DNA of 64,000 nt from an uncultured Flavobacteriaceae bacterium (lineage in GTDB: Bacteria; Bacteroidota; Bacteroidia; NS11-12g; UBA955), in NCBI GenBank assembly GCA_964475595.1, contig CAYYXG010000014.1, positions 1,326 to 65,325 of the forward strand. The letters run 5' to 3'. Both the position numbers and the translations under genes were made by a program. Below are positions 3,517 through 34,719 of this stretch, piece after piece. Within the stretch, counting starts at the first letter, position 1. Each line of letters opens with the position of its first letter. The notes under the pieces are model-generated. The model saw only the letters and a program-made list of their open reading frames with translations. It was not told the origin of the DNA and did not search any database.

Positions 3517-4425
3517 TTATTCTTCCAGCTTCTTCAAAAGATCCGCAATTTCTGCATCCGGATTTTCCATTTTTCTGGTCATGAGTTCATTATAAATACC
3601 ATGCAGGAATTTAAATTCAAACAAAGTAATAATGTACTCATGATTAAAAAATTCTGCTGAGAACGCTTTAATTGTTTTCTTCTTATCTTCCTGAAAATTT
3701 CTAGAAAAACCCGCTGTATCTACAAGATCATTTGCCTTGATACGCTTTAAGAAATTTACGGTGATCTCTTTGTAGATGGTATAAAGATCAAGAGATTCGG
3801 TAAGTGAAGTAATATTGGCAGAACCTTCTTTTCCTGATAAATTCTTTAGTCGTTCTTTTGCCTGTTGGATATCCAAAGTTGTTAATTTACCAAGAAGACT
3901 GTTTTTAATATTGAAATACTCAATTGCACTTTTTAACTTTGAACTAAATTCATTGTTACCGGCAAAAAATACTAAATCTCTTTCCAAAATATCCTTATTG
4001 GTTTTGTTTATGATTTCATCCAAAGAGCAGTTGTAATAAACAGACAGTTTATTAATGGTGCTGATTTCTCCCTTCTGAAATGCCAGTTCTTCAGCTTTCT
4101 TCTGATTGCCAATCTGAGATAAGGAGTCTCCTTTTATTTTAATAGATAAATCGATAATTTTTTTTTGTAATTCGGCATTTTTATCCTGAAGTGTGCGGTT
4201 TTCTGACTGTCTTTTTGCGATTTCATTGTTGAGTGAATCCAGTGTTTCTTTCATCAAAAAACCCTTTTCTTTCTCAAAGATATTTTCAACGGCTTTGGTA
4301 ATCTCCGCATTTAACTTATCTCTTTCTGCTATTTTCTGTTTAACAGAATTGATGTCAGATTTTTTTTGAGCGACTGACATAAAAGGTACTCCAAAAAATA
4401 AAAGTATGGATATATTTTTTTTCAT
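3517..4425 (-). CDS. secreted coiled-coil protein (last gene of island operon)
   Basis: 302 aa. Signal peptide MKKNISILLFFGVPFMSVAQ. K/E-rich heptad-like sequence. Confidence 0.55.
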   Translation of the reverse strand: MKKNISILLFFGVPFMSVAQKKSDINSVKQKIAERDKLNAEITKAVENIFEKEKGFLMKETLDSLNNEIAKRQSENRTLQDKNAELQKKIIDLSIKIKGDSLSQIGNQKKAEELAFQKGEISTINKLSVYYNCSLDEIINKTNKDILERDLVFFAGNNEFSSKLKSAIEYFNIKNSLLGKLTTLDIQQAKERLKNLSGKEGSANITSLTESLDLYTIYKEITVNFLKRIKANDLVDTAGFSRNFQEDKKKTIKAFSAEFFNHEYIITLFEFKFLHGIYNELMTRKMENPDAEIADLLKKLEE

Positions 4426-4429
4426 GATT

Positions 4430-5362
4430 TTAATTACAACCTGGATCTTTATATGGGTTATTGAATGGATATATATTATCTAAATATTCACTGAGAGCTG
4501 CTTTTGTGTCATCAAAGCAATTATCATCAATTCCATAAATGTTAGACAAACTATTCAATTGGCTTTTTACTGCCGGCAGATGCTTTAAGGAGAATTCATT
4601 TTTATAAGATGTCGAATGCTCCATTTTGGACAATTGGCTTATTTTAACAATGAAATAATTTACTACTTTTTTAAACAATACTGTAGATATATTTTCAAGT
4701 TCTTTTCTAATTTGAGGGCAATTAACCGGGAAAGTCAAATCTGACAAGTATGATCTTTGTGGTATCATTAATTCGCTTTCTAATTTAGTTTGTGGAAGTA
4801 TATCATTTATAGCAGGTTTTGAATTACCTTTATATAGCGTCAATGCATTTGCTTTGGCAATAAATTGTTTAATCTCGGTATATTTATTAAGCGTGGCTAA
4901 TATATCTTTCAGTTCATTCTTTTTATCTTCATCATTAAGCGATGAATTGGCTTGTGCATTTCCAACTTCCTTTATTAAATTCAACACCAGGCTTTCTTTA
5001 TCTGTTCCATTGGAGATAACATGTTTCGCAGTTTTGATAAGTTTAGAAACATAAGTCTTATACAACCTGTCTGCCAGGTTAAGTTTCATTGTCTCATTTA
5101 AACTGGGATTATTGGGTGCGAATTCAAGGGCGCTGCCCCGCGTTTCAATATCAAATTTTAAAGCATGATACTGTGCCTGATAAATTATGGTATCATCTGC
5201 CAACGCCTCGAAACTGTCAATTCTGCTTATCATCCATTTCTCCTTATCCTGACCAGTTAGGATTGTCAGTGGGTCAGGAATTCGGCCTTTCATCCAGAAA
5301 TAACAAGCAAAACCGATTAGCGAAACAACGGCCAATATGATTATTATTTTGATACTTTTCAT
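4430..5362 (-). CDS. N-terminally membrane-anchored protein, paralog A
   Basis: Start trimmed to the internal M (MKSIKIIII...) to remove overlap. ~65-70% identical to the upstream neighbour. Ends ...NPYKDPGCN. Confidence 0.55.
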   Translation of the reverse strand: MKSIKIIIILAVVSLIGFACYFWMKGRIPDPLTILTGQDKEKWMISRIDSFEALADDTIIYQAQYHALKFDIETRGSALEFAPNNPSLNETMKLNLADRLYKTYVSKLIKTAKHVISNGTDKESLVLNLIKEVGNAQANSSLNDEDKKNELKDILATLNKYTEIKQFIAKANALTLYKGNSKPAINDILPQTKLESELMIPQRSYLSDLTFPVNCPQIRKELENISTVLFKKVVNYFIVKISQLSKMEHSTSYKNEFSLKHLPAVKSQLNSLSNIYGIDDNCFDDTKAALSEYLDNIYPFNNPYKDPGCN

Positions 5363-5366
5363 GATT

Positions 5367-6302
5367 TCATATACAGCCTGGATCTTTATATGGGTCATCA
5401 AATGAATATATATTTTCTAAATATTCAATAAGTGATTGTTTTGTGTCATCAAAACAATTATTATCTATCCCATAAATGTTAGATAAACTATTCAATTGGC
5501 TTTTTACTGCCGGCAGATATTTTAAGGAGAATTCACCCTTATTTAAACCTGGCCATTCCTTTTTGGATAATTGGCTTATTTTACTTATAAAAAAATTTAC
5601 AGATTTTTTGAACAATATGACAGATACATTTTCCACTTCTTTTTTAATGTGGGGGCAATTAACAGGGAATGTCATATCTGCCAAATATGATCTTTGAGGT
5701 ATTATAAAATCATTTTCTAATTCTGTTTGTTGCAGTATATCGTATATACCGGGTTTTGAACCAGCATTACTTAGCGTCAAGCCATTTGCTTTGGCAATAA
5801 AATTTTTAATCTCAGTATATTTATTAAGCTTATCTAATATATCTTTCAGTTCATTCTTTTTATCTTCATCATTAAGCGATGTATTAGCTTGTGCATTTCC
5901 AACTTCCTTGATTAAATTCAAAATAAGGCCTTCCTTATCTGACCCATTGGAGATAACAAGGTTCGCAGTTTTGATAAGTGAAGAAATATATGTCTTATAT
6001 AACATATCCAACAAATCATTTTTTTGTGTTTCATTTAAATCAGAATCATCGGGCGCGAATTCAAGGGCGCTTCCACGGCTTTCAATTTCAAATTTTAGGG
6101 CATCGTAATGTGACTGGTAAATTGCAGTATCTGCCAATGCATCGAAAGAGTCGATTCTGCTTTTCATCCAATTATACTTGTCTGATGGAGGATTTATTAC
6201 CGTTTCACCACCATCTTTACCATCGTCTTTCATCCAATGGTAACACATAAAACCAATTAACAGTAAAACTACAAATACGATAATTATTTTTAAACTTTTC
6301 AT
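5367..6302 (-). CDS. N-terminally membrane-anchored protein, paralog B
   Basis: 311 aa. TM helix IIIVFVVLLLIGFMCY. Tandem paralog of 4430-5362 with shared blocks SRGSALEFAP, NLIKEVGNAQAN, IYGIDNNCFDDTK. Confidence 0.6.
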   Translation of the reverse strand: MKSLKIIIVFVVLLLIGFMCYHWMKDDGKDGGETVINPPSDKYNWMKSRIDSFDALADTAIYQSHYDALKFEIESRGSALEFAPDDSDLNETQKNDLLDMLYKTYISSLIKTANLVISNGSDKEGLILNLIKEVGNAQANTSLNDEDKKNELKDILDKLNKYTEIKNFIAKANGLTLSNAGSKPGIYDILQQTELENDFIIPQRSYLADMTFPVNCPHIKKEVENVSVILFKKSVNFFISKISQLSKKEWPGLNKGEFSLKYLPAVKSQLNSLSNIYGIDNNCFDDTKQSLIEYLENIYSFDDPYKDPGCI

Positions 6303-6318
6303 ATTTTTAAATGTTAAA

Positions 6319-8409
6319 CTATCTTAGTTTTTCACAGAAACAATTTAAATCAGGACACTGTGATATAATATTTTGATTATTTTTATTTTTATTTTTAATT
6401 TTTTCTATATTATCTTTGACTTTCTTAATATTATTGGTTTGATCTTTTGAATTAAATCTATTAATGGTATTCATCAATTTTTCTTGGTCTATAGCACCAT
6501 TGTAATAATCTCTTATTGCCTTATAAACATCATCTTCTTTTGAAGTTGATTTTGGGGGGTCACCTCCGGTCTCCCCCCCCGAACCGGATCCCGTTTTATT
6601 TCCTCCGGATCCGGCAGCACCACCCTTAGATCCGCCGCCACCTTTAACTATCGGGTCTGGTTCCGGATTTTTGTCACCCAGCTTTCTGGCTATTGCAGCC
6701 AATATGGTCTTTTTCAGGCTGTCGGGCCGGCTAATTTTCTCAACAAGGCCTCTCCGATGTATAAGACTATCCGGAGACTTTATGTTCTTCACTGCGGCTT
6801 CAATCTCAATGAGCTGTTTTATGGTATCAATTAATCTGCCCGCTGCTGACAAACTCATGGTACTTATTTGTTCTTTTATTAAATATCCACCAACTCGCTT
6901 TCTTGTATTTTTATCAGAGATTTTAACTATTTCCTCAATAATAATTTTTAGGCCATCATTCTGACCCATATTTGGATCCTTTGACAAATTTTGCTTGATG
7001 ATACCTTCAAAATCGCCCTTGTTCAGCAATTTCCTGAAAGCAATCGCTTTTTGCAACTTTTCACATTCATCCGCATTATAGGTATCTTTAGTTATATCTA
7101 CACAATTTGCATTACTTCTTTTTTCAAGATCTGCTAGCAGCCAGTTATCATTGGTGAGCAGTACCTCGATTTCATTGTCTTCATTTGGCGGAGGAGGAAA
7201 CAGGTACGTAGCACCCAGGAAAATCATCACACAAAGCATAACAACCGCACCTCCCAAATAGAAGGGCTTGAGGTCCATTTTCTTTTCATATTGAGCAATC
7301 AGAACACCATTCATCAATTCAAAACCTGTAAATCTGTATCCTGGATTGGGTTCAATGTAATGCTTTACATCACTTCCATCATGCTTTCCTGAAGTTACAC
7401 CTTTGCGGGAAAGTTCCCCAAATTCTCCGGCAGATACTTTATATCTGGGCGTTAACTGAACATTCGTGGCTATCCTGAAAGAATTGCTTCCCTGCTGAAA
7501 AATCAAGTTTTTATCAGCACCCGCATTTTTCATCGAAATCTTTACTTCCAGGCTTTCATGATTTTCCTTGGAATAAATGATTTTTAGGGAGTCGTTTAAA
7601 CCAAACTTCACCAAATCACCCGGCTTAAGCCCCTCATTGTTCTTAAACACCTGTATCCTAAGTGAACTGGAAGAAGTCGGACAGACCAATGTATATTCTA
7701 CTTTTTCACGGATGATTTTTATTTTTCCGGTCAAATCGGCGTTTCTAGAATAATCCAATACCTTGAGTGGATTATCTGACTGATCCTTTTTTTGCTTATC
7801 TATAAAATAAATCTGTAAATAAGGCTCAAAATCTTTTTGGTACGGGGCGGAAAGAAGACTATTTAATTCCTCTGAGCTTTCATAATATGCATACGCTTTT
7901 GATCTCTGCTTTGGTTCCTGCTCAGATTCAATAAAAGCAAGTGCTTCATCATCTTTTTTTATCTTATTGTTTGAATTATACCTGTCAAGAATTGACTCGG
8001 TAAAAGACCAGTCTGCAGGCATTCCAACATTAGGGGTATGGTCCGTGGCTTCAAGATAAGGTCGGTAATGATTATGAATCTCATCCAAAATGCTTCGAAT
8101 ATCTTCACCCTCCATTTGCTTATTCCAAGGAAGGGTAATAGCAAAATTAAAGGTACCAATTCTGCCACTACCACCGCCATCTTTAACAATTATTGTTTTG
8201 GTATAAACTTTTTTCTGTTTGTAAAATGCAATCGAGTAGACAAAATTTCCTAACCCGATATGTGTTTCCGGACTTACTGCAGAGGGATCCCACACGTCTA
8301 ATCTATCCGGATTGTCCTCAACAAACTGGTTCTTTTCAGTGAATTGATTACGTTTCGGATTTAAAACCTTGTATCCGCTCCTTATCCCATGTACATAAAT
8401 CTGAATCAT
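6319..8409 (-). CDS. large single-pass membrane protein with Gly-rich segment
   Basis: 696 aa. Central TM LGGAVVMLCVMIFLGATYLFPPPP. GGGGSKGGAAGSGGNKTGSGSGG tract encoded by G6/C8 homopolymers. Confidence 0.6.
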   Translation of the reverse strand: MIQIYVHGIRSGYKVLNPKRNQFTEKNQFVEDNPDRLDVWDPSAVSPETHIGLGNFVYSIAFYKQKKVYTKTIIVKDGGGSGRIGTFNFAITLPWNKQMEGEDIRSILDEIHNHYRPYLEATDHTPNVGMPADWSFTESILDRYNSNNKIKKDDEALAFIESEQEPKQRSKAYAYYESSEELNSLLSAPYQKDFEPYLQIYFIDKQKKDQSDNPLKVLDYSRNADLTGKIKIIREKVEYTLVCPTSSSSLRIQVFKNNEGLKPGDLVKFGLNDSLKIIYSKENHESLEVKISMKNAGADKNLIFQQGSNSFRIATNVQLTPRYKVSAGEFGELSRKGVTSGKHDGSDVKHYIEPNPGYRFTGFELMNGVLIAQYEKKMDLKPFYLGGAVVMLCVMIFLGATYLFPPPPNEDNEIEVLLTNDNWLLADLEKRSNANCVDITKDTYNADECEKLQKAIAFRKLLNKGDFEGIIKQNLSKDPNMGQNDGLKIIIEEIVKISDKNTRKRVGGYLIKEQISTMSLSAAGRLIDTIKQLIEIEAAVKNIKSPDSLIHRRGLVEKISRPDSLKKTILAAIARKLGDKNPEPDPIVKGGGGSKGGAAGSGGNKTGSGSGGETGGDPPKSTSKEDDVYKAIRDYYNGAIDQEKLMNTINRFNSKDQTNNIKKVKDNIEKIKNKNKNNQNIISQCPDLNCFCEKLR

Positions 8410-8411
8410 TT

Positions 8412-9755
8412 TTATTTTTTTAGAAATTTTCTGAAGACCGATGTATTTTCATCCGGTACTTGAGCATGTATTGTTTGTATTATTTCATCTGAATATTCCC
8501 TGTTTATCCTACAAATCCTGTTAAAGTATAAGTCTCCTATTGAAAACATCTTTACCCCGAAGTCCATATTAAAATTTTTGCTTTGTTCTCTTAATAAATC
8601 ATAAAAATTTAAAAACCGTTCTTCAATGAATCTTTTTGCCTCTTCCAGTTTCTCTTCCTCAGTATTCCCCGGGATTGAATCTGCTTTGGTAATAATAATA
8701 TACAACCCTTTGGATTTATGTGACAATATCTTCTGGTGGTTTCTAAAGTAATTTGTAGCCGCGGTCAGATATTCTGCCTGGGTAATATCCTGATTTATAA
8801 TATCCCTTGACTTTTCAGCTTCATAATCTATGAAGAAAAAATGCAGTTTAGGATTGGAACTTGCCACCAGTAGTTTTACAGTCTCAAAGGCCTCTAAAAC
8901 TTTTTCGCCTTTGTCTTCATCCAGCTTCTTTACACCTGTAATTACTTCATAAAAATACTTAAATAATTCGCCGCTCAATTCGAAGAAAGAGACATTCTTA
9001 TATTTTCTTCTGTCCCTTTTTTTAAATTGGAAAGGCATATATTGGGTGGATTCCTCCGGTGTACGGTTGGGAAGGCACGCAATATCATTGAGGAAAACAC
9101 GGGTAAGGTCATTTCTGTATGAATTTCCCATGGTTATGCCTACAGGATCTACGATATTATATTTCTTATTCATCGTGCTCAGAATTGCTGCCAGAGCACA
9201 GGTCTTTCCCGATGTAGAAGTTCCCCAGAAATAGACATCTGTAAAATCATCAGGTATCTCATCTTTTGATTTGGGAATATGATTATAATTGGCATTCAGT
9301 GTTGCATATCTAAATTCTTTAACTATCTTAAAATCTATGCCATAATGCCCGCATAGTTCACGCACATTATCTTCACCCAACTTTCTGATAGGATCATCCT
9401 CGATAAACAACAAATTAGGATTATCAATATACTTCTGTAATTCCTGGTTTAGTTTTGCTGCTTTTTCTTCTTTTAGCGCATTGATTTTCGCTATAACCAA
9501 TTCCTGTTTCCGGGAATTTGGATAATCCACCAAAAACTGCTCCAATTGATGGATATCCGTTGCCGCGTTAAAATCATTATTTTCCTGTTCACCTGCACCA
9601 AGCAATTTCCTAACCTCTTGCTGCCTGAGTGTTGCAAAGTCACCTGTATCCTGTAACTCTTCGAATGTAACGTGTCCATCGCTTATGGCAGCCGCAATAT
9701 CACGGTTATCCATATTGCCTACATTATCCAGATAGTATTGTTTATCCTGATGCAT
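8412..9755 (-). CDS. P-loop NTPase
   Basis: 447 aa. Walker A GTSTSGKT and Walker-B-like LHFFFIDYE. Translationally coupled to neighbours (3-nt gap). Confidence 0.6.
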   Translation of the reverse strand: MHQDKQYYLDNVGNMDNRDIAAAISDGHVTFEELQDTGDFATLRQQEVRKLLGAGEQENNDFNAATDIHQLEQFLVDYPNSRKQELVIAKINALKEEKAAKLNQELQKYIDNPNLLFIEDDPIRKLGEDNVRELCGHYGIDFKIVKEFRYATLNANYNHIPKSKDEIPDDFTDVYFWGTSTSGKTCALAAILSTMNKKYNIVDPVGITMGNSYRNDLTRVFLNDIACLPNRTPEESTQYMPFQFKKRDRRKYKNVSFFELSGELFKYFYEVITGVKKLDEDKGEKVLEAFETVKLLVASSNPKLHFFFIDYEAEKSRDIINQDITQAEYLTAATNYFRNHQKILSHKSKGLYIIITKADSIPGNTEEEKLEEAKRFIEERFLNFYDLLREQSKNFNMDFGVKMFSIGDLYFNRICRINREYSDEIIQTIHAQVPDENTSVFRKFLKK

Positions 9756-9774
9756 TTTTCTCTTTTGTTAAAAA

Positions 9775-10734
9775 TTAAATCTCAACAGTAAATTTATTAT
9801 CGCCTCGCTTGTTGTTATTTTTTCCGATTTTGAAACCCAAAAGTGTTTGCTCGTTTTTAAAATCTCTGTCGGTTACCATGTAATCCAGCATCATCAGTAA
9901 ACACAAAATCAATCCGATTGCAATCGCCAATACCCCGGGCTGGCCTTCTTTCTTGAATTTTCCCTGCACATTGGTTAAAGAGATGCCTGGATCGTACGGT
10001 ATAATTGCTGCAGAATCTTCTGCATTTGCCATGTATGCTGTATATCCCCTAAGTTGATTTATTCTGATACTGATATTCTTTTCAAGGTTATTAATTACAT
10101 CAACCACAGCTATCGGTTTCCAATTTTCTATGCTCTCTTTTGCCATATTTAACCAAACGGAATCTGCTGTTTTTTGTGCCTTATAATTTGCAGGAAACAA
10201 TTTACCTTTTAAAACATTTAACAGCGTACCTGCCTGCTGATTTTCGATACTTGGATTAAATCCAAGCTGATCGTACAGCGGGGGATTGAAATTAAGACTG
10301 TGTGCTTTTATAATACTATTTAATTTTATGTCATACTTCGCAATTCTGCTATGGGCATTTTGTTCGTAAACCTTATACATACCTTTGGCCTTGTCAATAT
10401 CAGCAAGTACGACCTTCTGAATGCTGCTTTTCTTTGAGTAAACATGAAAAAAATGAGAAAACGGTTTAATGAGACAGAAACACAGTGCTATATATGACAG
10501 CACCAACAGACGCTCCACCATAATCATCCTCTTAAAATTGTTGTGCGCCTTTTTGGTTGCTCTCGCCATCAGAACAAGAACATACAGGGAAAACATCATC
10601 AAAAATGCCGTCAACAGGGCATCTTTAGCATCTCCTATATTTAGGTAATTCTGTCCCAGAAATGCAATAAATCCATATCCAAGGGCAGCAAGGGCAGCAA
10701 GTACGCCTGCCAGTGAAATTTTCGCCTTACTCAT
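9775..10734 (-). CDS. polytopic membrane protein
   Basis: 319 aa. Three to four N-terminal TM helices followed by a soluble domain. Confidence 0.55.
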   Translation of the reverse strand: MSKAKISLAGVLAALAALGYGFIAFLGQNYLNIGDAKDALLTAFLMMFSLYVLVLMARATKKAHNNFKRMIMVERLLVLSYIALCFCLIKPFSHFFHVYSKKSSIQKVVLADIDKAKGMYKVYEQNAHSRIAKYDIKLNSIIKAHSLNFNPPLYDQLGFNPSIENQQAGTLLNVLKGKLFPANYKAQKTADSVWLNMAKESIENWKPIAVVDVINNLEKNISIRINQLRGYTAYMANAEDSAAIIPYDPGISLTNVQGKFKKEGQPGVLAIAIGLILCLLMMLDYMVTDRDFKNEQTLLGFKIGKNNNKRGDNKFTVEI

Positions 10735-10780
10735 TTTACAAATATTATGGTTTTTTTCTAAACTTTATCGGTTTTATCTG

Positions 10781-13630
10781 TTACGGACGGAGATTTCTTA
10801 ACTCACTGTCAATTCTATCCAGCTCACGTCGAAGTCTTTCCCTTTCGCGTTCAAGTTCATCCCTGTTTCCTCGGGGCGTGCCACCTCCGAACTCCCCACT
10901 GCGGTTATCTGTGTTACCATCTCCGATACCGCCTTCAAGCGTAAATGAACAAATCTTTATTCTGCCTTGACTTTTAGCTATATTTCCTGTGTATTCTTCT
11001 TCCTTGTCACCATAAATCACCTTGATTTTGTAGGGATTGGTTGAGACGTCTGGAAGATGTTGTCGATAGAGCCATAAATAAACTGAATAGGTGCCTGAGG
11101 GTGCTGTTCCGGTGGGCCAGTATATATTTTCAATAGGAGTATTGGAACCGCCTGGCTGAACATTCATATCAATCTCGAGCATTCCACCACTGCCCACACG
11201 CCTGTTTCCATACCAGATGGTTTGCCCAGCCGGATCCACACAGGCCAGGTCCAGATCGTTCTGGTTGTCCCAGTTGAGCAGAATCTGTACATCACCCGTA
11301 GAAGGGGTGGGGTTCTCATTAGCACAATTGACTGCACCGCCTGATTTGACCTTTTGCAGTGCTTTATCAATTTGAATCAAGTTACCGATTTTACCATTTG
11401 CCGGCACACCTGTTGACTGTAAGATACATTTGATCTGCTCGGTTGTTAAATCGGGCTTTATACTTTTCATCAATGCCACAGCACCGGTTACGATGGGTGT
11501 TGCCATACTGGTACCATCCATATATTGATATCCGTCTGAACCTGAGGTGCTGTATATCTTTACACCAGGGGCAGATATGGTGGCATTATTACCATAATTA
11601 CTAAAACCGGCTTTTTTAACTGCTGAACTGGATTGATCCACAGCCGATACAACAATGAAGTGTTTTGGCCTTTTCAACGGATCTACGCCGGCCAGGACAT
11701 TATCGTTTCCTGCTGCGGTAACAATAGTTGCGTTATGAGATTCCGCAATATCCATAATTTTTGTCCACAGCCGCTCTTCCTCCTTAAAATGATACTGCTG
11801 TAATTCACGCTGTTCATTTTCACTGATATTGCCATTGAACTTCATGCCCACAGACATATTTACCACATCAGCACCCTGATACAGTGCGTACAAAACCCCA
11901 TCGAGCAAAGATGTCGTTGTCATAACATCCTGGTCATTCGATACCTGTATAGGCATCAGTGCGCATTCACCGGCAATACCACTAATGCCTGTTCCATTAT
12001 TGATAGAAGCCACTGCCGTTCCGGCAACGTGGGTGCCGTGATCAATATCCTGGGCGCTGATTCTATTATTATGCTTCCACACATTGTAGGGCATAACAAT
12101 TTTATTTTTCAGTTCCGGATGATCCGTATTGAATCCATTATCCACAACTGCGACGGTAATGGTGCGCGAACCTTTTGTTATATCCCATGCCGCTGCTGCG
12201 TTTACTGCTTTCAAATACCATGATTTTTCGTTGTCACTAAAAGAAGGGTCGTTGGGACTAAAATTGCTCTCAAAAAGTGCCTCATCAAAGATAAAAATTT
12301 TAAAATCCGGAGAAACCTGACCGGGGAATTCCTGTTTTATTTTATTTCTATCCTCCGGTGGAACCTTTATCTGCATTCGCTTTACAACATCATCATAATA
12401 AATCACCTCATACTCTTCAGCAGGATACAGTTGTTTAAATTTTCTCGCTAAATCCATGATGCTCTTATTTTCATCTTCAAGCAACACGTTCAGTCGATCA
12501 TTAAAAATAACTGGCCTTCCGGGCTCTCTAACAAGATTAGAAGTATCCGGATCAGGCAGCACACCTTGCTCAGGTGGTAATATATCGCGATATTCAGGTG
12601 GTGTTGGAACCGGCTCGTAGGGATGACCTGGATTGTAAATACCTCCATGACCTGCCCTTGGATCCTTGTCTACCCATGGCTTTTTCTCAATAGGTGATGG
12701 AATAGGTCGTGATTCTACATGGTTACAAGTTCTGAACAACCAGCAAATCAACAATAGCAGCAAGAGAAAGAGCAGTAGATACAGCAACCACTTCAAACAA
12801 CCGGAACCGGTTAACCAAAGCCATAAACGCCTGTACCAAGGCAATCTGACTGCTTTGTATAAAGCTGTAAACTGGACATCCCCGTTTACCTCATGACCAA
12901 GAGGTTGAGTATCCCAACCTGCAAATTTAAAACCATCTTTCGGAACAACAGATGGAATATCACCATCTGTAATGAGGTCACCAGACTTTTTATTTATATC
13001 AATCCACTGCTTATCACTGTTTGAGTTTGGCCCTAATATAAAAGTGACAGTATGGTTGTTCTGAGGAATGGTCTCAGAAGTTGGCTGTTCGTCGACAGAC
13101 TGATTTTCTTCAGTCGGTTGTATCGGGCGGTTCTTGGAGGAGAAAATATTTTTCATGGCTATACCAAGCGGCTCTCGCACATGTTCCCGTAGCTCCATGC
13201 CCCAAATCCCCAATACTACCTTATCATCGTAGCAGTAAACAAAATCTTTATTGACAAACTTTATTGCCCTTTCCAGACAGTCAGCCTCATCAACTTTTCC
13301 AGTTTCTTTTAAATTAGAAATTACAGCATTGTAATGATTGCGGGTTTTCTCTAATATCTCTTCATATCGGCTCAATTCATCGGATTCCAGTTTGGTTAAC
13401 TGCTGTGGAGTTTCAGAATAAGGAACGGCATACCACGTAATTTCTTCCCCGTGAAAAACCGGCTGAGCAAGAAAATGTCTGTATTCAGGCAGTATATTCC
13501 TGTTTACAATACTGGAGAGGGCTTCATACCTGTCAAATAGTTTTCTTCCCCTATATTCCTGAACTGATTTGAAAAAGGTTTCAAATCTTTCGCAACTGCA
13601 AAGTTTGTCTAATCCGTATACTACAGGCAT
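10781..13630 (-). CDS. membrane-anchored subtilisin-like (S8) serine protease with long N-terminal cytoplasmic region
   Basis: 949 aa. Catalytic Asp VAVVDNGFNTDHPEL, His HGTHVAGT, Ser GTSMATPIVTGA. Central TM WLLYLLLFLLLLLLICWLF. C-terminal coiled-coil ERERERLRRELDRID. Confidence 0.8.
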   Translation of the reverse strand: MPVVYGLDKLCSCERFETFFKSVQEYRGRKLFDRYEALSSIVNRNILPEYRHFLAQPVFHGEEITWYAVPYSETPQQLTKLESDELSRYEEILEKTRNHYNAVISNLKETGKVDEADCLERAIKFVNKDFVYCYDDKVVLGIWGMELREHVREPLGIAMKNIFSSKNRPIQPTEENQSVDEQPTSETIPQNNHTVTFILGPNSNSDKQWIDINKKSGDLITDGDIPSVVPKDGFKFAGWDTQPLGHEVNGDVQFTALYKAVRLPWYRRLWLWLTGSGCLKWLLYLLLFLLLLLLICWLFRTCNHVESRPIPSPIEKKPWVDKDPRAGHGGIYNPGHPYEPVPTPPEYRDILPPEQGVLPDPDTSNLVREPGRPVIFNDRLNVLLEDENKSIMDLARKFKQLYPAEEYEVIYYDDVVKRMQIKVPPEDRNKIKQEFPGQVSPDFKIFIFDEALFESNFSPNDPSFSDNEKSWYLKAVNAAAAWDITKGSRTITVAVVDNGFNTDHPELKNKIVMPYNVWKHNNRISAQDIDHGTHVAGTAVASINNGTGISGIAGECALMPIQVSNDQDVMTTTSLLDGVLYALYQGADVVNMSVGMKFNGNISENEQRELQQYHFKEEERLWTKIMDIAESHNATIVTAAGNDNVLAGVDPLKRPKHFIVVSAVDQSSSAVKKAGFSNYGNNATISAPGVKIYSTSGSDGYQYMDGTSMATPIVTGAVALMKSIKPDLTTEQIKCILQSTGVPANGKIGNLIQIDKALQKVKSGGAVNCANENPTPSTGDVQILLNWDNQNDLDLACVDPAGQTIWYGNRRVGSGGMLEIDMNVQPGGSNTPIENIYWPTGTAPSGTYSVYLWLYRQHLPDVSTNPYKIKVIYGDKEEEYTGNIAKSQGRIKICSFTLEGGIGDGNTDNRSGEFGGGTPRGNRDELERERERLRRELDRIDSELRNLRP

Positions 13631-13640
13631 CTTATCTACA

Positions 13641-16499
13641 TTAATTAAAACCTATGGCCGAACATTCATCTAAAACAACTTTAAGGCGCTCATTTGCGCG
13701 GATGTCATAATTTGGAATATCACAAACATAAACAAAACCTGTTTTCAAAGCATTACACCAATTTATGTAGTTTTTTACATGTGGTAATTCATTTAATTCA
13801 GCGGGATTCTCCTGTAGGATTTTATTTAGTTCTTCCAAACGGTTTATATTTAAATCGCTTTTTTTGTTTTGAGCATTGAAGATAGAATCGGATTGTGGAA
13901 AATCGAGAATTAGGTCCAGCGAATTTTTTTCATTAGCAATTTTAAGGTCATTTAAATCTTCAGTAGAAAAATATGCTCTACCAAATGTTGACATAAAAGA
14001 ATTAAGGATTTCGCAACTTATATCAGAAATCATTTCATAGACTACCTCCTGATTCTTAGATCCGTTAACATGAAGCCATATTTTATCCGAAATGTATTTT
14101 GACATTTGTAATTTATTATAGAGCTTCTTGAAAGTATCCAAAATGTTTTCAGCCTCAAGTTCGCTTAAATAATTAACGGTAGACTTCAATTTGGCAGGCA
14201 GACCTTCATTAAACCAATAACGCTCCAACGCTTCCGCCAAAATTTGTGAAAAATGCTTTACCCTGTCAAGTCCACCATAAAACAACTCATTCAGATCCAC
14301 TCCCTGTTCTTCAAAGAATTGTCTGCAGGCTTCAGCACTTTCTTTCTCATAGTGCTGACGCAAATATTCCAGATTTTCATCAAATGATGCATTGGAGTCC
14401 AAACGGGGCACCAACAGCCTAATTGAACTGTAATTGGTTACATCTACATTATTTCTGTGCTCAATATCTCTGATTTCATCGATAAAAATTTCATAAACTT
14501 CTCCGTTAGAAATCATCAAATCTTTAAGCATTGGTCCAAAGAAATGCTGACTTCTGCTGAAGGCAATATCAAGTTTCGCCTTTATTCTGCCTGCCATAGC
14601 CCTGGCTGCCAATATATTTTGGGATTTATCAGAGCTGTTATAATATTCACTCAACAAACTAAAGATGCCATTATTGATGGCTTCAAGATCACGGCGCCAT
14701 TTCTTTTCCCTGGCATTGACAGTGTTCACTGCTGCAATCCCAAGTTTCTCAATAATCAATCCCGTTCCATCTTCGTTAATTCCGGCAGCCCGATCCCAGG
14801 AAACAGCCGGATTTTCAAAATGTTTTTTGACAAAATCATAATCGAGAAATGACTTTCTAAGCTGCTCCCTAAAATCAAGATAATCGTTTGGTTTAATCTC
14901 TTCTGTCTCTATACCATGCCTGCTGTAACCGCTAAACAGGTTGCCCTTTTCAGAATAGACAAAATCCCTTAGCAGATAAATGTTTTGAAAATTAGGCTTG
15001 GAAATGGTCCACTGGCGAAACCAATTGTACGTTTTTACATCCAGTAACTCAGTAGCCAGTGTGCTTTCAAACCTCAGATTCCATCGATGGTTTAATGAAT
15101 CTATATTATCCCGACGATCCTGATTAAGATTATATTCAAGATTTTCATTAAAAAATGTACCTACTATAAACAATGGAGAAACAACAGCGTTTTCGATGAA
15201 CTCTTCCCTGCTTTCAGGGGTTTCTCCAATATAACGTTTCACCCAGTTATTAAGCATTTCCGGCAGGCTGCGCTGTGCAGCCTGTTCATGTTTTGCACAT
15301 AAAATGAAAATGCTGATTTTTTCAGCTTCTGAATATTTATTGAACAGGTATGCAACCTTACCACGAATAAATAAATCGGGGATGTTTTTTTGCTCAAGTA
15401 AAGCAGCCGGATGAGACATTCGTGCTCTTGCTCCCGGAAAATCCAGCAAATCCATCTCTTTTAAAAAAGGCTTGGAATCAAGAATGGATTCCCGGATTGA
15501 AAACACAATTTCCGCCACCATAAGGCACAGGTATGGTTTTTCAACTTCACGGATCTGTTCATTGCAAAATACTTTTGTGGTTGAACAGTATTGCTCGGGA
15601 AGATTTTTTTGCTCTGATATATCTGTATATAATTCTTTCAGTCTCTGAACATCCAAAATGGTTCCGTATTTTGAAAGCACGGATTCAATGGGCAGAAAAA
15701 TGGTTTCAGCAAAATTCAATGCCTTCATTTGTTCCACAGTGGTGCTAAAAAGATTGTGGAATGTGATATTGTTGTTCCATAATGGGGCAAAAACCGCAGC
15801 CCATTTCTCAGGTGCTATATTATTAATTAGCCTGGCAACCACTTTGAAATAATCCGAGCTGAGCAACAGATTTGCTTTGGTTGCAAAATGAGCTTTATAA
15901 TATTCCTGAATACCCCAGATATCATCTTCAGAGAGGGCATTTTGAATATTTTTTCCACCTGAGCTATAGTCAACCTTGAGATTTTCTACAAAATCATTCA
16001 GCACTGCTAAATCAATAATGGAGTCATGATCCACTTTAACATCGTTGTAGTAGCTATCAGATAAGATAAGAATTATATCAGCAGCTGACAGCATTAAAGC
16101 CTTTACAGGAAAATTGGGGTTTTGGGGCTTATAATTCACTGAGAAACGGGTTACCAGACTGGTAGACTCCATTCCCCCACCGGTGGGATTTATGTCCTTA
16201 ATAAAATTGTGATAGGTATTTTCATTCCCCATCACACAAAAAGGTTCATTCGATTCGGATAGCAGGCTGCTAATGAGATAAGATTTGCCAACCTGACTTT
16301 CGCCATAAACGGCAGCTGCACTGTTATCCTGCATGGCGAATTTTTTCTTTTTAAGTTCACGTCGGTAACCTACCAGTTTATTGTATAGAAATTCACCCTT
16401 TTTCCCATGCATAGCCTCCGTTTCTTCAATCCATTTTTCGGAGTTTTTAATCACATTGAGCTGTGCGTTTATTTTATTTATCATTTCCACCTTTTCCAC
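13641..16499 (-). CDS. large P-loop NTPase, possibly SrfC-like
   Basis: 952 aa. Walker A VYGESQVGKSYLISSL near the N-terminus. 11-nt gap to the downstream gene and 1-nt overlap with the upstream SrfB-like gene. Confidence 0.6.
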   Translation of the reverse strand: MEKVEMINKINAQLNVIKNSEKWIEETEAMHGKKGEFLYNKLVGYRRELKKKKFAMQDNSAAAVYGESQVGKSYLISSLLSESNEPFCVMGNENTYHNFIKDINPTGGGMESTSLVTRFSVNYKPQNPNFPVKALMLSAADIILILSDSYYNDVKVDHDSIIDLAVLNDFVENLKVDYSSGGKNIQNALSEDDIWGIQEYYKAHFATKANLLLSSDYFKVVARLINNIAPEKWAAVFAPLWNNNITFHNLFSTTVEQMKALNFAETIFLPIESVLSKYGTILDVQRLKELYTDISEQKNLPEQYCSTTKVFCNEQIREVEKPYLCLMVAEIVFSIRESILDSKPFLKEMDLLDFPGARARMSHPAALLEQKNIPDLFIRGKVAYLFNKYSEAEKISIFILCAKHEQAAQRSLPEMLNNWVKRYIGETPESREEFIENAVVSPLFIVGTFFNENLEYNLNQDRRDNIDSLNHRWNLRFESTLATELLDVKTYNWFRQWTISKPNFQNIYLLRDFVYSEKGNLFSGYSRHGIETEEIKPNDYLDFREQLRKSFLDYDFVKKHFENPAVSWDRAAGINEDGTGLIIEKLGIAAVNTVNAREKKWRRDLEAINNGIFSLLSEYYNSSDKSQNILAARAMAGRIKAKLDIAFSRSQHFFGPMLKDLMISNGEVYEIFIDEIRDIEHRNNVDVTNYSSIRLLVPRLDSNASFDENLEYLRQHYEKESAEACRQFFEEQGVDLNELFYGGLDRVKHFSQILAEALERYWFNEGLPAKLKSTVNYLSELEAENILDTFKKLYNKLQMSKYISDKIWLHVNGSKNQEVVYEMISDISCEILNSFMSTFGRAYFSTEDLNDLKIANEKNSLDLILDFPQSDSIFNAQNKKSDLNINRLEELNKILQENPAELNELPHVKNYINWCNALKTGFVYVCDIPNYDIRANERLKVVLDECSAIGFN

Positions 16500-19400
16500 T
16501 ATTTTAAAGTGACTATTTTTAAATTTTGAAATACCCCGGTATCCATCCAGTATTCGCTATCCTCGCTCATACTTTGCAATTGAAGCGTGAAATAGGCAGG
16601 CGTGATATCTTCACCCTCCCTTGATTCCACACTATCTATTTTAATAATTTCCTTGTCATCCCTGTAACTCTCTCTAATTATTGTAAACTTAAAAGGTTCC
16701 TGCTTTTTCAATTTTTCAAATTCAGCTTGGAATGCCATTTGAATCTCCTGCTTTTGTTCATCAAACAACCCTTTTTTATTTTTAATTTTTTCTTCAATCT
16801 TCTCTCGGTTAAAATCCAAAAAATAAAAGGGCCTTGTCGGATAAAGCTTTGTATCAAGCTGCCTTGTCCATATCCTCCAGGGCAATTGAGGTACTGATAC
16901 TTTGTTGCTGTTAAGCGCTGGTGTTATAAATGCTTCCTCTGTTTCCTTCAATGCGAAGTAATCACTGGTCGGAACCATTTTTTTGCCCAGTTCAGATAAA
17001 TCCAATGCAAAACCATTCAAACTCCCTGCAGTGGAAGAATAATGTCCAATCATCGCTCCCACCGCCACAACCGATTTGGAGTCTTTGAAATATCCGTTAC
17101 CATCTTGAAAAGGATACCATCTTCCAACCCTGTATTTATTCAGTGCAACAATTCTATTAGGTGAAACTGCAAAGTATTTTAAGAATAAATCCGAAATGGG
17201 TTTCAATCCTGTAGGTCTTCCGGAAAGCAAAACAATATCGCATTTATAGTGTGCCAGGATGGCGGAGATCTTACCTACAAGAGAATCAAACACACTTTCA
17301 ACTATCGGGGCAATAATTTTACGGTCATATTGCCAGGCAATATCCTTAAGGCTAAATCCAAAGTGATTTTGGAAATAATCCTGCACTCTCTCCGTAGGCA
17401 TATTATGACTAAAAATATCATTGAAGGTGAGTACACGGGAATTTTGCTTGTCTTCAGCAAGAAGCTCAAGATACTTTACAACGACTGGAACAGAAACCTG
17501 CAAATTAAATTCGCTTCTTATTTGCCGTGCAGTTTTAGACTGACGTGCAGTGTTCTCCCCAAAAAAATCATTGATGAGTTTGGATGCCTCCGCTTTTTTT
17601 AGCTTTTTCAGCCATAATTCCATCGCGCCAAACTCACCTTCTATAATAAGTTTTCTGACCAGGTCTTTAAGCATATCATCACCTGCCAGATAGAAACTCT
17701 CCCAAAACAATGGTTCCGGTTTGAGAAGACACTGCCCAGTATCGCCATAGGTATAATCTGCAATCATCAGATCTGTTGTTCCGGCACCGATGTCTACAGA
17801 GCCGATTGTAAGATGTTTGCTCGTCTCTCCAGATCCGGATTTGCCACCATAGAATTCGAAAAACTCCTTGCAATTATTATTGTATCGTTTATTGATTTCA
17901 GCATACAGATATAAGAATTGCGTGCAGGTGGCTTCGTCATATATCCAGGATTTATCCTCTGAATTTTTTGATACACTTGCAGAACTGGGTATTATCTGTA
18001 CATTTTTTCGAGCAGCTTTTTCATCTAAATCATCAAGATGTGTTTCATTATAAAAACGATCTAACATAATAGCTGCGTCTTCAGCACACTTTCGCAGTGC
18101 TATCTGCTCTACTTTAGACATAGCAGTAGGACATGTTATCAGTATACGATCCAATCTTCTCGGCTTCGCTTCATCACCCCATCTTTGTCTGAAGGCGTAA
18201 CCGTTAATCTGCATTCGTGCCTGGCTAAATATTTCAAGAAAAGCGAAGGTCATCAAAGATCTTCTTGAATAGTTAGAAACAAATCCCCCGCTACCATCAG
18301 TATTAAGGGTACCATCAGCATTAACCTGCTCAGAAATACCCTTAATCCAAATATTTTTGCTGCGTTCCTTGTCAAATGAAATAAACTCCCATTCTTTCTT
18401 TTGAGGTTTAGAGTCCCATAAGAAACGTTTTGGACTGGAAAATGTAGTGATTTTGTCCAGGCCTATATTTAAACTGGCCGTATTGTGAATTAATTCGTTG
18501 GCTTCAATCCCAAGACGAACTGCGCTCGGATAAACGAACTGAGGACTATTTTTAATAAAATGGCCTCCAAAACTTGCTTCATGAAATGCCAGTCGCATGT
18601 CAAAGGGTTCACGGGATTTATTTAGCTCTCCATTAACTACAGGATTGGTAAAATTTTGCAACTCCAGATTCTCTACCTTGGTGAAATCATGGTTATCAAA
18701 TAACACTGCACAGGTGCGCGAATTCCCCATATCCACAACAAGATCTACATCACCATAGGCCACATTTCTGTTTGAAAACAGGGTCACTTCAGGCACAGTC
18801 TTTAGCTGCTGTATATATCTTAGTAAAAAAACATACTGGGCCAAATAACTCATTTTTGGTTTTTTTATCCGCATTCCATCAAGGCTTTTCTCCCCGTGAA
18901 ATAACTCCAGGATATATTCATCAACCCACTCACAATTCATTGATTTTGAGAAAAAATCAATGAGTGAAAATTCACTATTGCATAATGAAAACTGCTTGGA
19001 TCTGTCATAATTTGAAAAAGTTGGTGTTTCTACCAAATCATCAGCTTCAAAACCTTGGCTTTCAAATCGTGTTCGGGTATCAAATGCAATTAACAATGTA
19101 TATTTTCTGACTTGGTCTTTTTGTTCGCCTGGGACCAATTTAAACCTGCACCAGTTTACAGGTCCAAATTTTGACTTGTTATTTTTACCGAGTGCAAAAA
19201 ATGGCATTGGCAACCAATGGTTTTCGAATTTATCCCATTTCAAACGGTTTAGAGATATAGGAAAACAATCGGTTTCATCGCTGTCAGAATTAACATTAGG
19301 GATAACCTCCCTGAACTTTCCGCTTAAAAACTCTTCACTTTTATTTACTGCTGACCAAGGTTCTTTCACAGTCCCAGCCTTAATGAGTTTATCGCCGGAC

Positions 19401-19630
19401 ATTTCATCTGTTTTTTGAAGTGCACCCAACTTTAAAAGATCCTGTTTTCTGACCCAAACGTCCTCTTCTGCGTAATGATGCACCAATTCAAGTTTTAGTT
19501 GATCGTCTTCAGCGTCAAACCATTCATGAAAATACATTTTGAAATTATCGGAGAGCTCAATCTCCAGATCTGTGGAATATAACTGAATCCCCGAGTTGGC
19601 TATCAGACTTATATCTTTTTTCATTACCAC
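16499..19630 (-). CDS. large actin/Hsp70-fold (ASKHA) ATPase, SrfB-like
   Basis: 1043 aa. Phosphate-1 motif DLVVDMGNSRTCAVLFD, phosphate-2 motif SVDIGAGTTDLMIADY, adenosine motif IVLLSGRPTGLKPI. The size and architecture recall the virulence-factor SrfB family. Confidence 0.6.
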   Translation of the reverse strand: MVMKKDISLIANSGIQLYSTDLEIELSDNFKMYFHEWFDAEDDQLKLELVHHYAEEDVWVRKQDLLKLGALQKTDEMSGDKLIKAGTVKEPWSAVNKSEEFLSGKFREVIPNVNSDSDETDCFPISLNRLKWDKFENHWLPMPFFALGKNNKSKFGPVNWCRFKLVPGEQKDQVRKYTLLIAFDTRTRFESQGFEADDLVETPTFSNYDRSKQFSLCNSEFSLIDFFSKSMNCEWVDEYILELFHGEKSLDGMRIKKPKMSYLAQYVFLLRYIQQLKTVPEVTLFSNRNVAYGDVDLVVDMGNSRTCAVLFDNHDFTKVENLELQNFTNPVVNGELNKSREPFDMRLAFHEASFGGHFIKNSPQFVYPSAVRLGIEANELIHNTASLNIGLDKITTFSSPKRFLWDSKPQKKEWEFISFDKERSKNIWIKGISEQVNADGTLNTDGSGGFVSNYSRRSLMTFAFLEIFSQARMQINGYAFRQRWGDEAKPRRLDRILITCPTAMSKVEQIALRKCAEDAAIMLDRFYNETHLDDLDEKAARKNVQIIPSSASVSKNSEDKSWIYDEATCTQFLYLYAEINKRYNNNCKEFFEFYGGKSGSGETSKHLTIGSVDIGAGTTDLMIADYTYGDTGQCLLKPEPLFWESFYLAGDDMLKDLVRKLIIEGEFGAMELWLKKLKKAEASKLINDFFGENTARQSKTARQIRSEFNLQVSVPVVVKYLELLAEDKQNSRVLTFNDIFSHNMPTERVQDYFQNHFGFSLKDIAWQYDRKIIAPIVESVFDSLVGKISAILAHYKCDIVLLSGRPTGLKPISDLFLKYFAVSPNRIVALNKYRVGRWYPFQDGNGYFKDSKSVVAVGAMIGHYSSTAGSLNGFALDLSELGKKMVPTSDYFALKETEEAFITPALNSNKVSVPQLPWRIWTRQLDTKLYPTRPFYFLDFNREKIEEKIKNKKGLFDEQKQEIQMAFQAEFEKLKKQEPFKFTIIRESYRDDKEIIKIDSVESREGEDITPAYFTLQLQSMSEDSEYWMDTGVFQNLKIVTLK

Positions 19631-20031
19631 TCTTTATTATTATTACTTTTATTATTTATCTTATATATTTTCACCATACAAGCTTATGTTTCTATGATGA
19701 CTGGCATTAAGAAGCGAACTTCAAATATATAGAATTAACTGAAAAAAACATTATAAGTGAATATTTTGATATACAATCAATTAAGGATATTAACGCATAT
19801 TTTGAAGATAACCGTTTATTCATTTCGCCTGTAACAGACATTTTTAGCACATTGTTTCTAATTCGTGGCATTTTATTTAAACTATCCAACCGCACATAAC
19901 TCTCATTAAAAAATATGCCCCGCCTTGGCAATGTTTTAGTTGCTTTATGTTTTGATACATACAATAATAACAAACCCAACATCAACAAACCAAACATGTT
20001 GAAAAAATAATCCTCATACAAACAGCTCAAG

Positions 20032-27370: not shown

Positions 27371-27374
27371 CACT

Positions 27375-34684: not shown

Positions 34685-34719
34685 TCAAAGGAATACGAAA
34701 AATTCCGAAAACTAATCAG

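Follow-up and report, generated by a model that had tools for sequence, protein, structure and literature searches.

What does a pair of supposed virulence factors, SrfB and SrfC, do in a member of the Bacteroidota, in one operon with a membrane-anchored protease? SrfABC proteins have been labelled "virulence factors" for more than 20 years without a mechanism. The locus that raises the question lies in a stretch of 64,000 nucleotides (nt) from an uncultured Flavobacteriaceae bacterium (GenBank assembly GCA_964475595.1, contig CAYYXG010000014.1, positions 1,326 to 65,325 of the forward strand), hereafter called the window, within which all positions are counted. The listing of open reading frames (ORFs) showed nine successive ORFs, all on the minus strand, between 3517 and 19630. 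The spacers among them are 2-46 nt long or else there are short overlaps, and no overlap is left once the ATG starts favoured by orthologues are adopted (SrfB 19624, SrfC 16484, g8 5362). The tightly spaced nine-gene operon proposed in an earlier reading of the sequence (hereafter the original prediction) was thus borne out. With g7 and g8 being duplicates of one another by sequence comparison, the nine genes make up eight families, and the predicted layout comprises three NTPases that are soluble and five families of membrane or secreted proteins.

The analysis showed that this operon is a conserved cassette that extends an SrfABC-based gene set to another phylum, while its individual genes already carry public labels ('virulence factor SrfB', 'SrfC family protein', 'S8 family serine peptidase'). 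As to its role, the comparisons described below lead us to favour, by a modest degree, an envelope-directed surveillance or conflict system in which NTPases would gate periplasmic proteolysis. The features of the operon are as follows, with transmembrane segments abbreviated as TM and AlphaFold2 as AF2.

19631-20031, minus strand: AT-rich leader/promoter region 5' of srfB, from reading of the sequence
16499-19630, minus strand: g1, SrfB, soluble actin/Hsp70-fold (ASKHA) ATPase of approximately 1040 aa, by Pfam; likely ATG at 19624
13641-16499, minus strand: g2, SrfC, soluble large GTPase of the dynamin superfamily; likely ATG at 16484
13061-13630, minus strand: g3 residues 1-190, cytoplasmic SrfA-N-like domain, by NCBIfam SrfA_fam
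12716-13060, minus strand: g3 residues 191-305, membrane-adjacent β-domain (Listeria-Bacteroides-repeat type) and TM 273-305, by hydropathy and the positive-inside rule
12191-12715, minus strand: g3 residues 306-480, periplasmic Pro-rich linker, then a conserved domain of approximately 100 aa before the protease (54% identity in clade 1)
11351-12190, minus strand: g3 residues 481-760, periplasmic S8 subtilase catalytic domain, predicted active, by Peptidase_S8
10784-11350, minus strand: g3 residues 761-949, C-terminal β-sandwich (Golvesin_C/DUF2135/PPC-like), then a charged coiled-coil tail, by Pfam
9775-10734, minus strand: g4, inner-membrane protein with 4 TM, by hydropathy and the positive-inside rule
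8412-9755, minus strand: g5, soluble TRAFAC GTPase of the YcjX/DO-GTPase type, 447 aa, by motifs and AF2 model
6319-8409, minus strand: g6, bitopic protein, TM 379-407 by hydropathy
5367-6302, minus strand: g7, N-terminally anchored periplasmic protein of an uncharacterised family, by hydropathy
4430-5401, minus strand: g8, tandem duplicate of g7; likely start at 5362
3517-4425, minus strand: g9, secreted protein with signal peptide and coiled coil, from the sequence

Protein families of the operon

The resemblance of g1 and g2 to SrfB and SrfC, suspected from motifs in the original prediction, was confirmed by Pfam. SrfB matched PF07520 over residues 4-1034 with an E-value of 1.1e-191 (640 bits against a cut-off of 27), and its phosphate-1 (D298-x-G-N-S-x-T), phosphate-2 (D611-x-G-A-G-T-x-D) and adenosine (G802-R-P) motifs, all of which had been pointed out before, proved to be invariant in 64 orthologues. 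The identity to proteobacterial SrfB is approximately 26-28%, and PDB sequence and profile searches for a relative of solved structure returned noise only. SrfC matched PF10139 (Virul_Fac) with an E-value of 1.2e-106 (358 bits against a cut-off of 28), and its orthologues are labelled 'virulence factor SrfC family protein' by NCBI. The G1, G2 and G3 motifs as well as an LRD motif are invariant in the alignment of the orthologues. According to its AF2 model (pLDDT 85.3), SrfC is a mitofusin/BDLP-like GTPase of the dynamin superfamily, in which a G domain at the N-terminus is followed by a long C-terminal half made of helices. The dynamin-like proteins IniA and LeoA are among the matches of the model by fold; PDB sequence and profile searches with SrfC gave only noise, e.g., nanobodies and designed repeat proteins.

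The product of the third gene, g3, combines several domains. At its N-terminus, the window protein matched the NCBIfam model SrfA_fam (NF040486) with an E-value of 5.6e-5. The same model was matched by 20 out of 66 orthologous N-termini, at best with an E-value of 1.6e-9 and at model positions of approximately 53-188, and no other family recurred among the 66. All these matches are far under the curated 150-bit cut-off, which was set for the full-length protein, and they are therefore read as homology of the N-domain and not as membership in the equivalog. At that level g3 is, judged from its sequence, the SrfA of this system, and with the S8 protein as the putative SrfA homologue, the operon would hold the full SrfABC trio in the order B-C-A. 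Residues 1-190 are predicted to be a docking platform for SrfB and SrfC, a role transferred from work on the proteobacterial proteins (bioRxiv 10.64898/2026.09.18.752743; PMC6950479).

Hydropathy and the positive-inside rule predict that g3 is oriented with its N-terminus in the cytoplasm and its C-terminus outside. Residues 190-260 matched multi-repeat proteins in a representative search. The β-domain preceding the TM segment could be linked to residues 324-403 of g6 (hhalign, E-value 1.3e-4), so the pre-TM β-domain and the TM segment are common to g3 and g6. In the predicted periplasmic part, the conserved domain of approximately 100 aa sits at the position of a propeptide. The claim that this region is an I9-like propeptide found no support: Inhibitor_I9 (PF05922) did not match any of 66 orthologous pre-catalytic regions, and no alignable similarity to the propeptide of subtilisin BPN' was found in g3.

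A bitopic protein with a complete S8 triad, on the other hand, was correctly foreseen. Peptidase_S8 matched g3 with an E-value of 3.8e-44, and D497, H531, N642, and S708 are kept in 70 of the 72 orthologues. Comparison with BPN' gave an hhalign E-value of 1e-43. On the basis of these intact residues the protease is predicted to be catalytically competent. With 64% identity to the clade-1 orthologues, the S8 domain is the most conserved part of the cassette. The C-terminal region matched Golvesin_C (PF25275) in 24 orthologues (best E-value 9.4e-6), DUF2135 in eight, and PPC in two, and it ends in the charged coiled-coil tail RDELERERERLRRELDRIDSELRNL. The idea that the third gene of some gut Bacteroidales lacks an S8 domain arose as an artefact of a drifted g4 hidden Markov model (HMM) and an over-strict motif expression; it was rejected because every suspect protein could be aligned across the S8 domain and has the catalytic residues.

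The second Walker A/B protein had been taken for an ATPase. Its invariant TKxD motif and the TRAFAC fold of its model identify g5 as a GTPase instead. The protein consists of a helical TPR-like domain (residues 1-165) and a G domain (166-447), and the motifs GxxxxGK, ELSGE, and TKxD are invariant in the orthologue alignments. YcjX was the best structural match of the AF2 model (pLDDT 90.8). PDB sequence and profile searches returned noise only, and among 61 orthologues sub-threshold Pfam matches were obtained to DO-GTPase2 in 15 and to DO-GTPase1 in eight. We also considered SrfC and g5 as close paralogues, forming a 'double GTPase' pair, and discarded this candidate; the hhalign match is confined to the P-loop and has an E-value of 0.05.

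Hydropathy analysis agreed with the membrane topologies of the original prediction. SrfB, SrfC, and g5 are soluble, with neither TM segments nor signal peptides, and there is one predicted TM segment in g3, four in g4, and one in g6, besides an N-terminal anchor in both g7 and g8 and a signal peptide in g9. In g4, a loop of approximately 170 aa (residues 91-262) is predicted to be periplasmic. The parts of g6 are a cytoplasmic N-domain of approximately 320 aa, the pre-TM β-domain, the TM segment, and, in the periplasm, a C-region that evolves fast and contains a Gly-rich tract. The duplicates g7 and g8 share 70% identity at the protein level and 82-87% at the nucleotide level, with a period of 937 nt. 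A signal peptide was also present in 13/13 inspected orthologues of g9. No described family was found for the orthologues of g4, g7, and g9, as the Pfam scans gave only coiled-coil and TM noise. Several sub-threshold matches of the low-complexity or coiled-coil kind were dismissed, namely those of g9 to PDC-S66 (PADLOC) and DivIC, of g7 to ETRAMP, and of g8 to Gag_p24_C.

In the leader of srfB, the sequence TATATTTG at 19729-19722 fits the Bacteroides -7 consensus, TAnnTTTG, and may weakly indicate a promoter. An ORF of 113 aa at 19707-20048 is probably spurious. A sigma-70 promoter and terminator scan is uninformative for Bacteroidota and was not used.

Distribution, conservation and mobility of the cassette

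To detect relatives of the cassette, one genome per species was scanned with an alignment of SrfC, and 167 out of 185,579 species genomes were positive. The alignment was needed as the query, as a scan of reference genomes with the single SrfC sequence found nothing. The loci of the best 80 of the 167 positive genomes were fetched, and 83 loci other than that of the window were compared. The first three neighbourhoods, from Runella, a Bacteroidota metagenome-assembled genome (MAG), and Candidatus Symbiothrix, already showed the order SrfB-SrfC-S8-g4-g5-g6-g7-g9 between unrelated flanks. With iterative HMMs, and setting aside loci truncated by a contig end, the order B-C-A-g4-g5-g6-g7(-g9) was found in essentially all of them, again with unrelated flanks. 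The conserved co-occurrence that the original prediction had called for was thus found in approximately 80 loci across the Bacteroidota, and the genes are inherited together. Over 120 protein clusters with 50-57% identity show the full-length architecture of g3. Orthologues of g4 stand at the same position in almost all loci and g7 is a single-copy gene at its position in the others, while detection of g9 was confined to one clade, that with an SrfC 40-50% identical to the one of the window, with orthologues in 26 other loci.

The hosts include Flavobacterium, Gelidibacter, Niastella, Mongoliitalea, Paludibacter, Prevotella/Segatella, Bacteroides, Alistipes, and Muribaculaceae, as well as the Fibrimonas/Chitinispirillia group. 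They are mostly free-living or commensal, e.g., termite-gut symbionts and freshwater Flavobacterium and Runella. A classical animal-virulence locus, doubted from the beginning, is indeed unlikely with hosts such as Flavobacterium, Niastella, Runella, and termite-gut and gut Bacteroidales.

The proteins of the cassette differ in their degree of conservation. The identity to clade-1 orthologues is 54% for SrfB, 53% for g3, 45% for SrfC, 32% for g5, and 29% for g4, and it falls to 21-23% for g6, g7, and g9 (23% for g6). Variation of the cassette is limited to this divergence of g6, g7, and g9 and to the copy number of g5 and g7 paralogues. The duplication that gave g7 and g8 is specific to the window; the closest relative, with an SrfC 81% identical, has one copy of g7 and different upstream genes. 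Together, the gradient of rates and the local duplication suggest, as far as sequence comparison goes, that the periplasmic proteins are specificity components under diversification.

Paralogues of g5 were seen in gut Bacteroidales. In these, a degenerate g5 paralogue of 194-320 aa that has no Walker A motif precedes the active g5 (loci L055, L060, L062, L066, L068, L070, L076, and L078-L081). A further degenerate g5 paralogue follows g7 in L055, L060, and L067, and probably in L050, L079, and L080. Judged from their motifs, these sets look like pairs of active and inactive GTPases.

The surroundings of the cassette are heterogeneous. The 149 nearest neighbours across the loci represent 144 Pfam families, the commonest including integrases (5) and transposases (3), and only approximately four of the 149 matched PADLOC models (PglZ, PDC-S02, AbiEii, and PDC-M34B). 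Individual cassettes adjoin BREX or PglZ genes or, in the window, a restriction-modification (R-M) system. On plasmid pSP2_1 of Runella sp. SP2 (NZ_CP031031.1, 43566-78604; locus L086), the cassette immediately follows, on the downstream side, a complete BREX type 1 system. Two divergent cassettes, with SrfB proteins 58% identical, are present in one MAG, and a relative was found on a single one of 2.9 million viral contigs. The heterogeneous flanks, the plasmid copy, the MAG with two cassettes, and the scarcity on viral contigs point to an accessory, horizontally moving module that is found sometimes, and irregularly, in defence islands.

On the Runella plasmid itself, the BREX system contains an inserted pair of an AAA ATPase and a restriction endonuclease. 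The cassette there is a divergent one, with an SrfB 34.5% identical, and is followed by more hypothetical genes than the version in the window.

Known systems and the possible function of the cassette

The closest known relatives are the srfABC operons of Proteobacteria, whose products go by the names of SsrB-regulated factors and 'SrfABC toxin' and which in the literature are confined to the alpha-, beta-, and gammaproteobacteria (PMC6950479). In Xenorhabdus, SrfA, SrfB, and SrfC form a heteromeric complex, as seen by native PAGE and co-immunoprecipitation, and lysates of X. stockiae as well as the purified SrfA, SrfB, and SrfC are cytotoxic to insect and HeLa cells (PMC6950479). In SrfA, a TM helix connects an SrfA-N domain in the cytoplasm to a lipocalin in the periplasm; the protein was modelled as a platform for SrfB and then SrfC, and export in outer-membrane vesicles (OMVs) was proposed (bioRxiv 10.64898/2026.09.18.752743). 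The cassette resembles the operons of Salmonella and Xenorhabdus in having SrfB, SrfC, and a bitopic SrfA-N-like protein in a single operon, and g3, like SrfA, has a single TM segment after the N-domain. However, the order of the trio is B-C-A in the Bacteroidota-type loci and A-B-C in proteobacterial srfABC (Rahnella plasmid), and four to five conserved genes (g4, g5, g6, g7, and g9) are added to the three. The periplasmic part also differs: in place of the lipocalin of SrfA, with its FLNGxW motif and four Cys, g3 carries the Pro-rich tether, the S8 domain, the β-sandwich, and the coiled coil, and no lipocalin family was matched by this part. The Lol-like ABC, vWA, and SUMF1 genes that neighbour srfABC in Haemophilus and Xenorhabdus are not among the commonest neighbour families of the cassette.

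A prediction by Kaur, Burroughs, Iyer and Aravind (2020, PMC7159879) gives DO-GTPases the role of switches in conflict systems. With the DO-GTPase/GAP1 systems the cassette has in common TM components, an Hsp70-fold protein, and a peptidase; g5, a TRAFAC GTPase with a Walker B Glu whose DO-GTPase matches are weak but recurrent, may be the counterpart of their GTPase, and the 'double GTPase' theme is echoed by the degenerate g5 paralogues of gut Bacteroidales. In those systems, however, a GAP1 protein follows the GTPase, while neither GAP1 nor GASH domains were detectable downstream in the cassette, and the Hsp70-fold part is played by DnaK/GrpE/DnaJ and not by SrfB. Nor does the cassette have the tubulin, the variable cytoplasmic effectors, or the effector-associated domains known from them. 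Its composition is fixed and its enzymatic output faces the periplasm, in contrast to their highly variable effectors.

The modelled SrfC shares a G domain and a helical bundle with bacterial dynamin-like proteins (Campylobacter DLP1/2, BDLP, DynA, IniA, and LeoA/Eleos) and, like many of these, is encoded in an operon with partner NTPases; by the same analogy it may act on membranes. It differs in showing no sequence similarity to them even in PDB profile searches and in having no TM segment and no obvious paddle, and in no characterised system of this kind are an ASKHA ATPase and a periplasmic protease the partners. S8 proteases encoded with NTPases are also known from IetAS and the PADLOC 'subtilase' systems. 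With PADLOC-DB v2, the S8 domain of g3 matched the subtilase model (E-value 4e-19) and, weakly, IetS (0.0015), and there was no component match for SrfB, SrfC, g4, g5, g6, g7, or g8. The likeness to these protease-containing defence systems thus lies in the generic S8 domain, and the partner proteins are different. Among NCBIfam models, the best S8 match of g3 was the mycosin of the type VII secretion system (T7SS; TIGR03921, E-value 4.7e-35, 121 bits against a cut-off of 279). MycP is anchored at its C-terminus while g3 is anchored N-terminally through SrfA-N, and no Ecc family of ESX was detected in the cassette in Pfam and NCBIfam scans. Judged by its gene families, the cassette falls outside the definitions of the DO-GTPase/GAP1 systems, of any PADLOC system, and of ESX. 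We found no paper on the Bacteroidota cassette, on a fusion of SrfA with S8, or on a dynamin-like SrfC.

How might these proteins work together? In the model that we prefer by that modest degree, the eight-family operon would build a complex spanning the inner membrane. In the cytoplasm, the SrfA-N domain of g3 would recruit the ATPase SrfB and the GTPase SrfC, and g5 would form a second, membrane-tethered NTPase unit with the N-domain of the bitopic g6. In the periplasm, the S8 protease of g3 would be held on its long Pro-rich tether alongside the g4 loop, the C-region of g6, g7 (g8), and g9; that the coiled-coil tail of g3 pairs with g9 is a guess. Assembly of the NTPases at the membrane or a conformational change, either of them dependent on nucleotide, might gate the periplasmic protease. 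The trigger could be a perturbation of the membrane or envelope or an invader, and the released protease could cleave proteins of the envelope or of the invader. Both YcjX and dynamin-like proteins, IniA among them, work at membranes that are under stress or being remodelled, and the link to membrane stress is drawn from the fold relatives of SrfC and g5, i.e., YcjX, the DO-GTPases, IniA, and DynA.

Several points weigh against this model. For the complex and the direction of signalling, the model extrapolates from proteobacterial homologues that are distant, with SrfB only approximately 26-28% identical. The SrfA_fam and DO-GTPase matches are all under their curated thresholds, and the tentative assignment of g6 as a GAP1 homologue was rejected, as its 52 orthologues showed neither GAP1 nor any recurrent Pfam family. 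No propeptide or inhibitor able to gate the g3 protease was detected by Pfam or in the comparison with BPN'. The fast evolution of the periplasmic proteins may simply reflect weak constraint. No PADLOC system model fits the cassette, the approximately four PADLOC matches among the 149 neighbours amount to no consistent defence-island context, and relatives are scarce on viral contigs. Of the originally proposed undescribed, membrane-associated conflict or defence system, the conserved and undescribed gene set therefore stands; the defence role did not gain support from the PADLOC models or the neighbours, although it is plausible.

Narrower versions of the surveillance model are less secure. 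A specifically anti-phage role is possible but doubtful; the bacterial dynamin-like protein DynA does confer phage resistance (PMC8844932). We put slightly less trust still in the idea that the cassette is a previously unrecognised envelope-spanning immune or conflict machine with an 'inside-out' protease response. SrfC and SrfB would then perceive a sign of infection or attack, in the cytoplasm or at the membrane, signal outward through the SrfA anchor, and set the tethered periplasmic protease to work. If this were true, the whole proteobacterial SrfABC family would have to be reread as a conflict or envelope-surveillance system with exchangeable outputs, lipocalin or S8.

Parts of the evidence would also fit quite different functions. 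LeoA, which is linked to vesicle-associated toxin secretion, is among the fold matches of SrfC, and a secreted tripartite SrfABC toxin, exported for example in vesicles and intoxicating eukaryotic cells, could use the protease and the accessory proteins for processing or release. The public 'virulence factor SrfB/SrfC' annotation, the cytotoxicity of X. stockiae SrfABC (PMC6950479), and the proposal of OMV export (bioRxiv 10.64898/2026.09.18.752743) agree with such a toxin. We nevertheless hold it to be very improbable, as SrfB, SrfC, and g5 have neither a signal peptide nor a TM segment, g3 is predicted to be a stable bitopic inner-membrane protein, and most hosts are Bacteroidota that live freely or as commensals. 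An intracellular machine is also the better fit for three cytoplasmic proteins with intact NTPase sites, and the Xenorhabdus evidence consists of lysates and ectopic expression. Export of another kind, by an ESX/type VII-like apparatus for secretion or maturation, is suggested by the mycosin match and by a parts list reminiscent of secretion systems (NTPases, polytopic and bitopic proteins, a tethered S8 protease, and small secreted proteins). Here the cytoplasmic NTPases would drive translocation by way of g4 and g6, and the anchored, mycosin-like subtilase would process or stabilise the machine or its substrates, which could be g7, g9, or cargo encoded elsewhere. This is improbable too: the mycosin score, being less than half of the cut-off, means generic S8 similarity only, no translocation ATPase of the FtsK/EccC or other known type and no channel-forming family were detected, and g4 has just four TM helices. 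In addition, a special exporter is needed neither for g9, which carries a Sec signal peptide, nor for g7, which carries a signal anchor.

Closest to the surveillance model, and overlapping with it except mainly in the nature of the trigger, is an accessory stress-tolerance module for non-conflict maintenance of the envelope, i.e., membrane repair and remodelling or periplasmic quality control, comparable to DynA, IniA, and YcjXF/Psp. SrfC resembles dynamin-like proteins that fuse or repair membranes, IniA included, g5 resembles YcjX, and DO-GTPase proteins have been predicted to take part in membrane-related stress and are linked to psp operons (bioRxiv 10.1101/2020.09.24.301986). Most neighbourhoods not being defence islands is also in its favour. 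A patchy and mobile distribution (167 of 185,579 species genomes), with plasmid-borne, integrase- or transposase-adjacent, and duplicated cassettes, would be unusual for housekeeping repair, and so would the rapid divergence of the periplasmic proteins. For these reasons we consider pure maintenance unlikely, if less so than export or a toxin, and keep to the surveillance or conflict system.

Whichever trigger applies, the Bacteroidota version would present SrfA as a transmembrane adaptor with an exchangeable periplasmic domain, in this case a protease, and the trio as extendable by a YcjX/DO-type GTPase and dedicated periplasmic partners. The hypothesis can be tested across approximately 170 species, including cultivable strains of Flavobacterium, Niastella, Gelidibacter, and Mongoliitalea. 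If a function in envelope defence were confirmed, it would constitute a new mechanistic class of bacterial immunity, and thousands of 'virulence factor SrfB/SrfC' genes would be reannotated.

The island and the neighbouring genes

As originally predicted, the operon lies in an integrase-bearing island with an R-M system. On one side, the island is bounded by the integrase gene (33158-34399), which adjoins the tmRNA gene (34719-35086), and an HpaII-type R-M system with Vsr is carried in the same island. No tmRNA-derived att repeat was found at the far end of the island among repeats of at least 16 nt. The G+C content of the operon is mostly 31-40%, with 42-45% in the stretch that encodes S8 (11-13 kb), and that of the core DNA beyond 35 kb is approximately 45-50%.

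The gene preceding the operon (20032-21009, minus strand) encodes an ADP-ribosylglycohydrolase (ARH; PF03747, E-value 8.6e-80). Its family and its GC content of 0.446, compared with approximately 0.31-0.40 across most of the operon, were as originally described. It does not lie immediately upstream, though, as approximately 400 nt of AT-rich DNA separate it from SrfB, and no ARH was found near the cassette in the 83 other loci or in the closest relative. For this reason ARH was rejected as a component of the system. Both it and the g7 duplication are local features, since ARH occurs in no other locus and the closest relative has a single g7. The gene could be an orphan ARH of the immunity type, of which Tri1 is an example, or what is left of core DNA that insertions have broken up.

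The 5' part of the ARH gene occurs twice. The two copies (20742-20999 and 30395-30652) are 9.6 kb apart, are 95% identical over 258 nt, and flank a block with the HpaII R-M, Vsr, 650-aa, 284-aa, DUF6339, and DUF4379 genes. This arrangement suggests that the block was inserted in or beside ARH with duplication of the target and that the island is composite. Within the block, three co-oriented genes (24574-28097, plus strand) encode proteins of 650 aa and 284 aa, neither with a Pfam match, and then DUF6339. They sit between the R-M/Vsr genes and a gene for a DUF4379 treble-clef zinc finger (28163-29659, minus strand) and may be another defence-like cassette.

A similar repeat is found beyond the other end of the operon. 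The 3' part of a Peptidase_M28 gene (380-1255, plus strand) is repeated, with copies at 839-1138 and 2655-2954 that are 94% identical over at least 300 nt. The second copy is the truncated ORF 2685-3071, and between the repeats lie approximately 1.5 kb with a DUF1810 gene and an ORF of 155 aa. The gene end was probably left duplicated by an insertion where the island has its far border.

In the core DNA of normal GC content, a tandem array at 39015-47411 (plus strand) encodes 12 paralogous small secreted proteins of 136-161 aa with pairwise identities of 37-73% and no Pfam assignment. Each has a signal peptide followed by the conserved motif NLQFGK(T/S)KLIDSK(T)DTVPxGKxWKxE. Two larger secreted paralogues (39529-40827 and 45681-47411), 70% identical to each other, flank the array.

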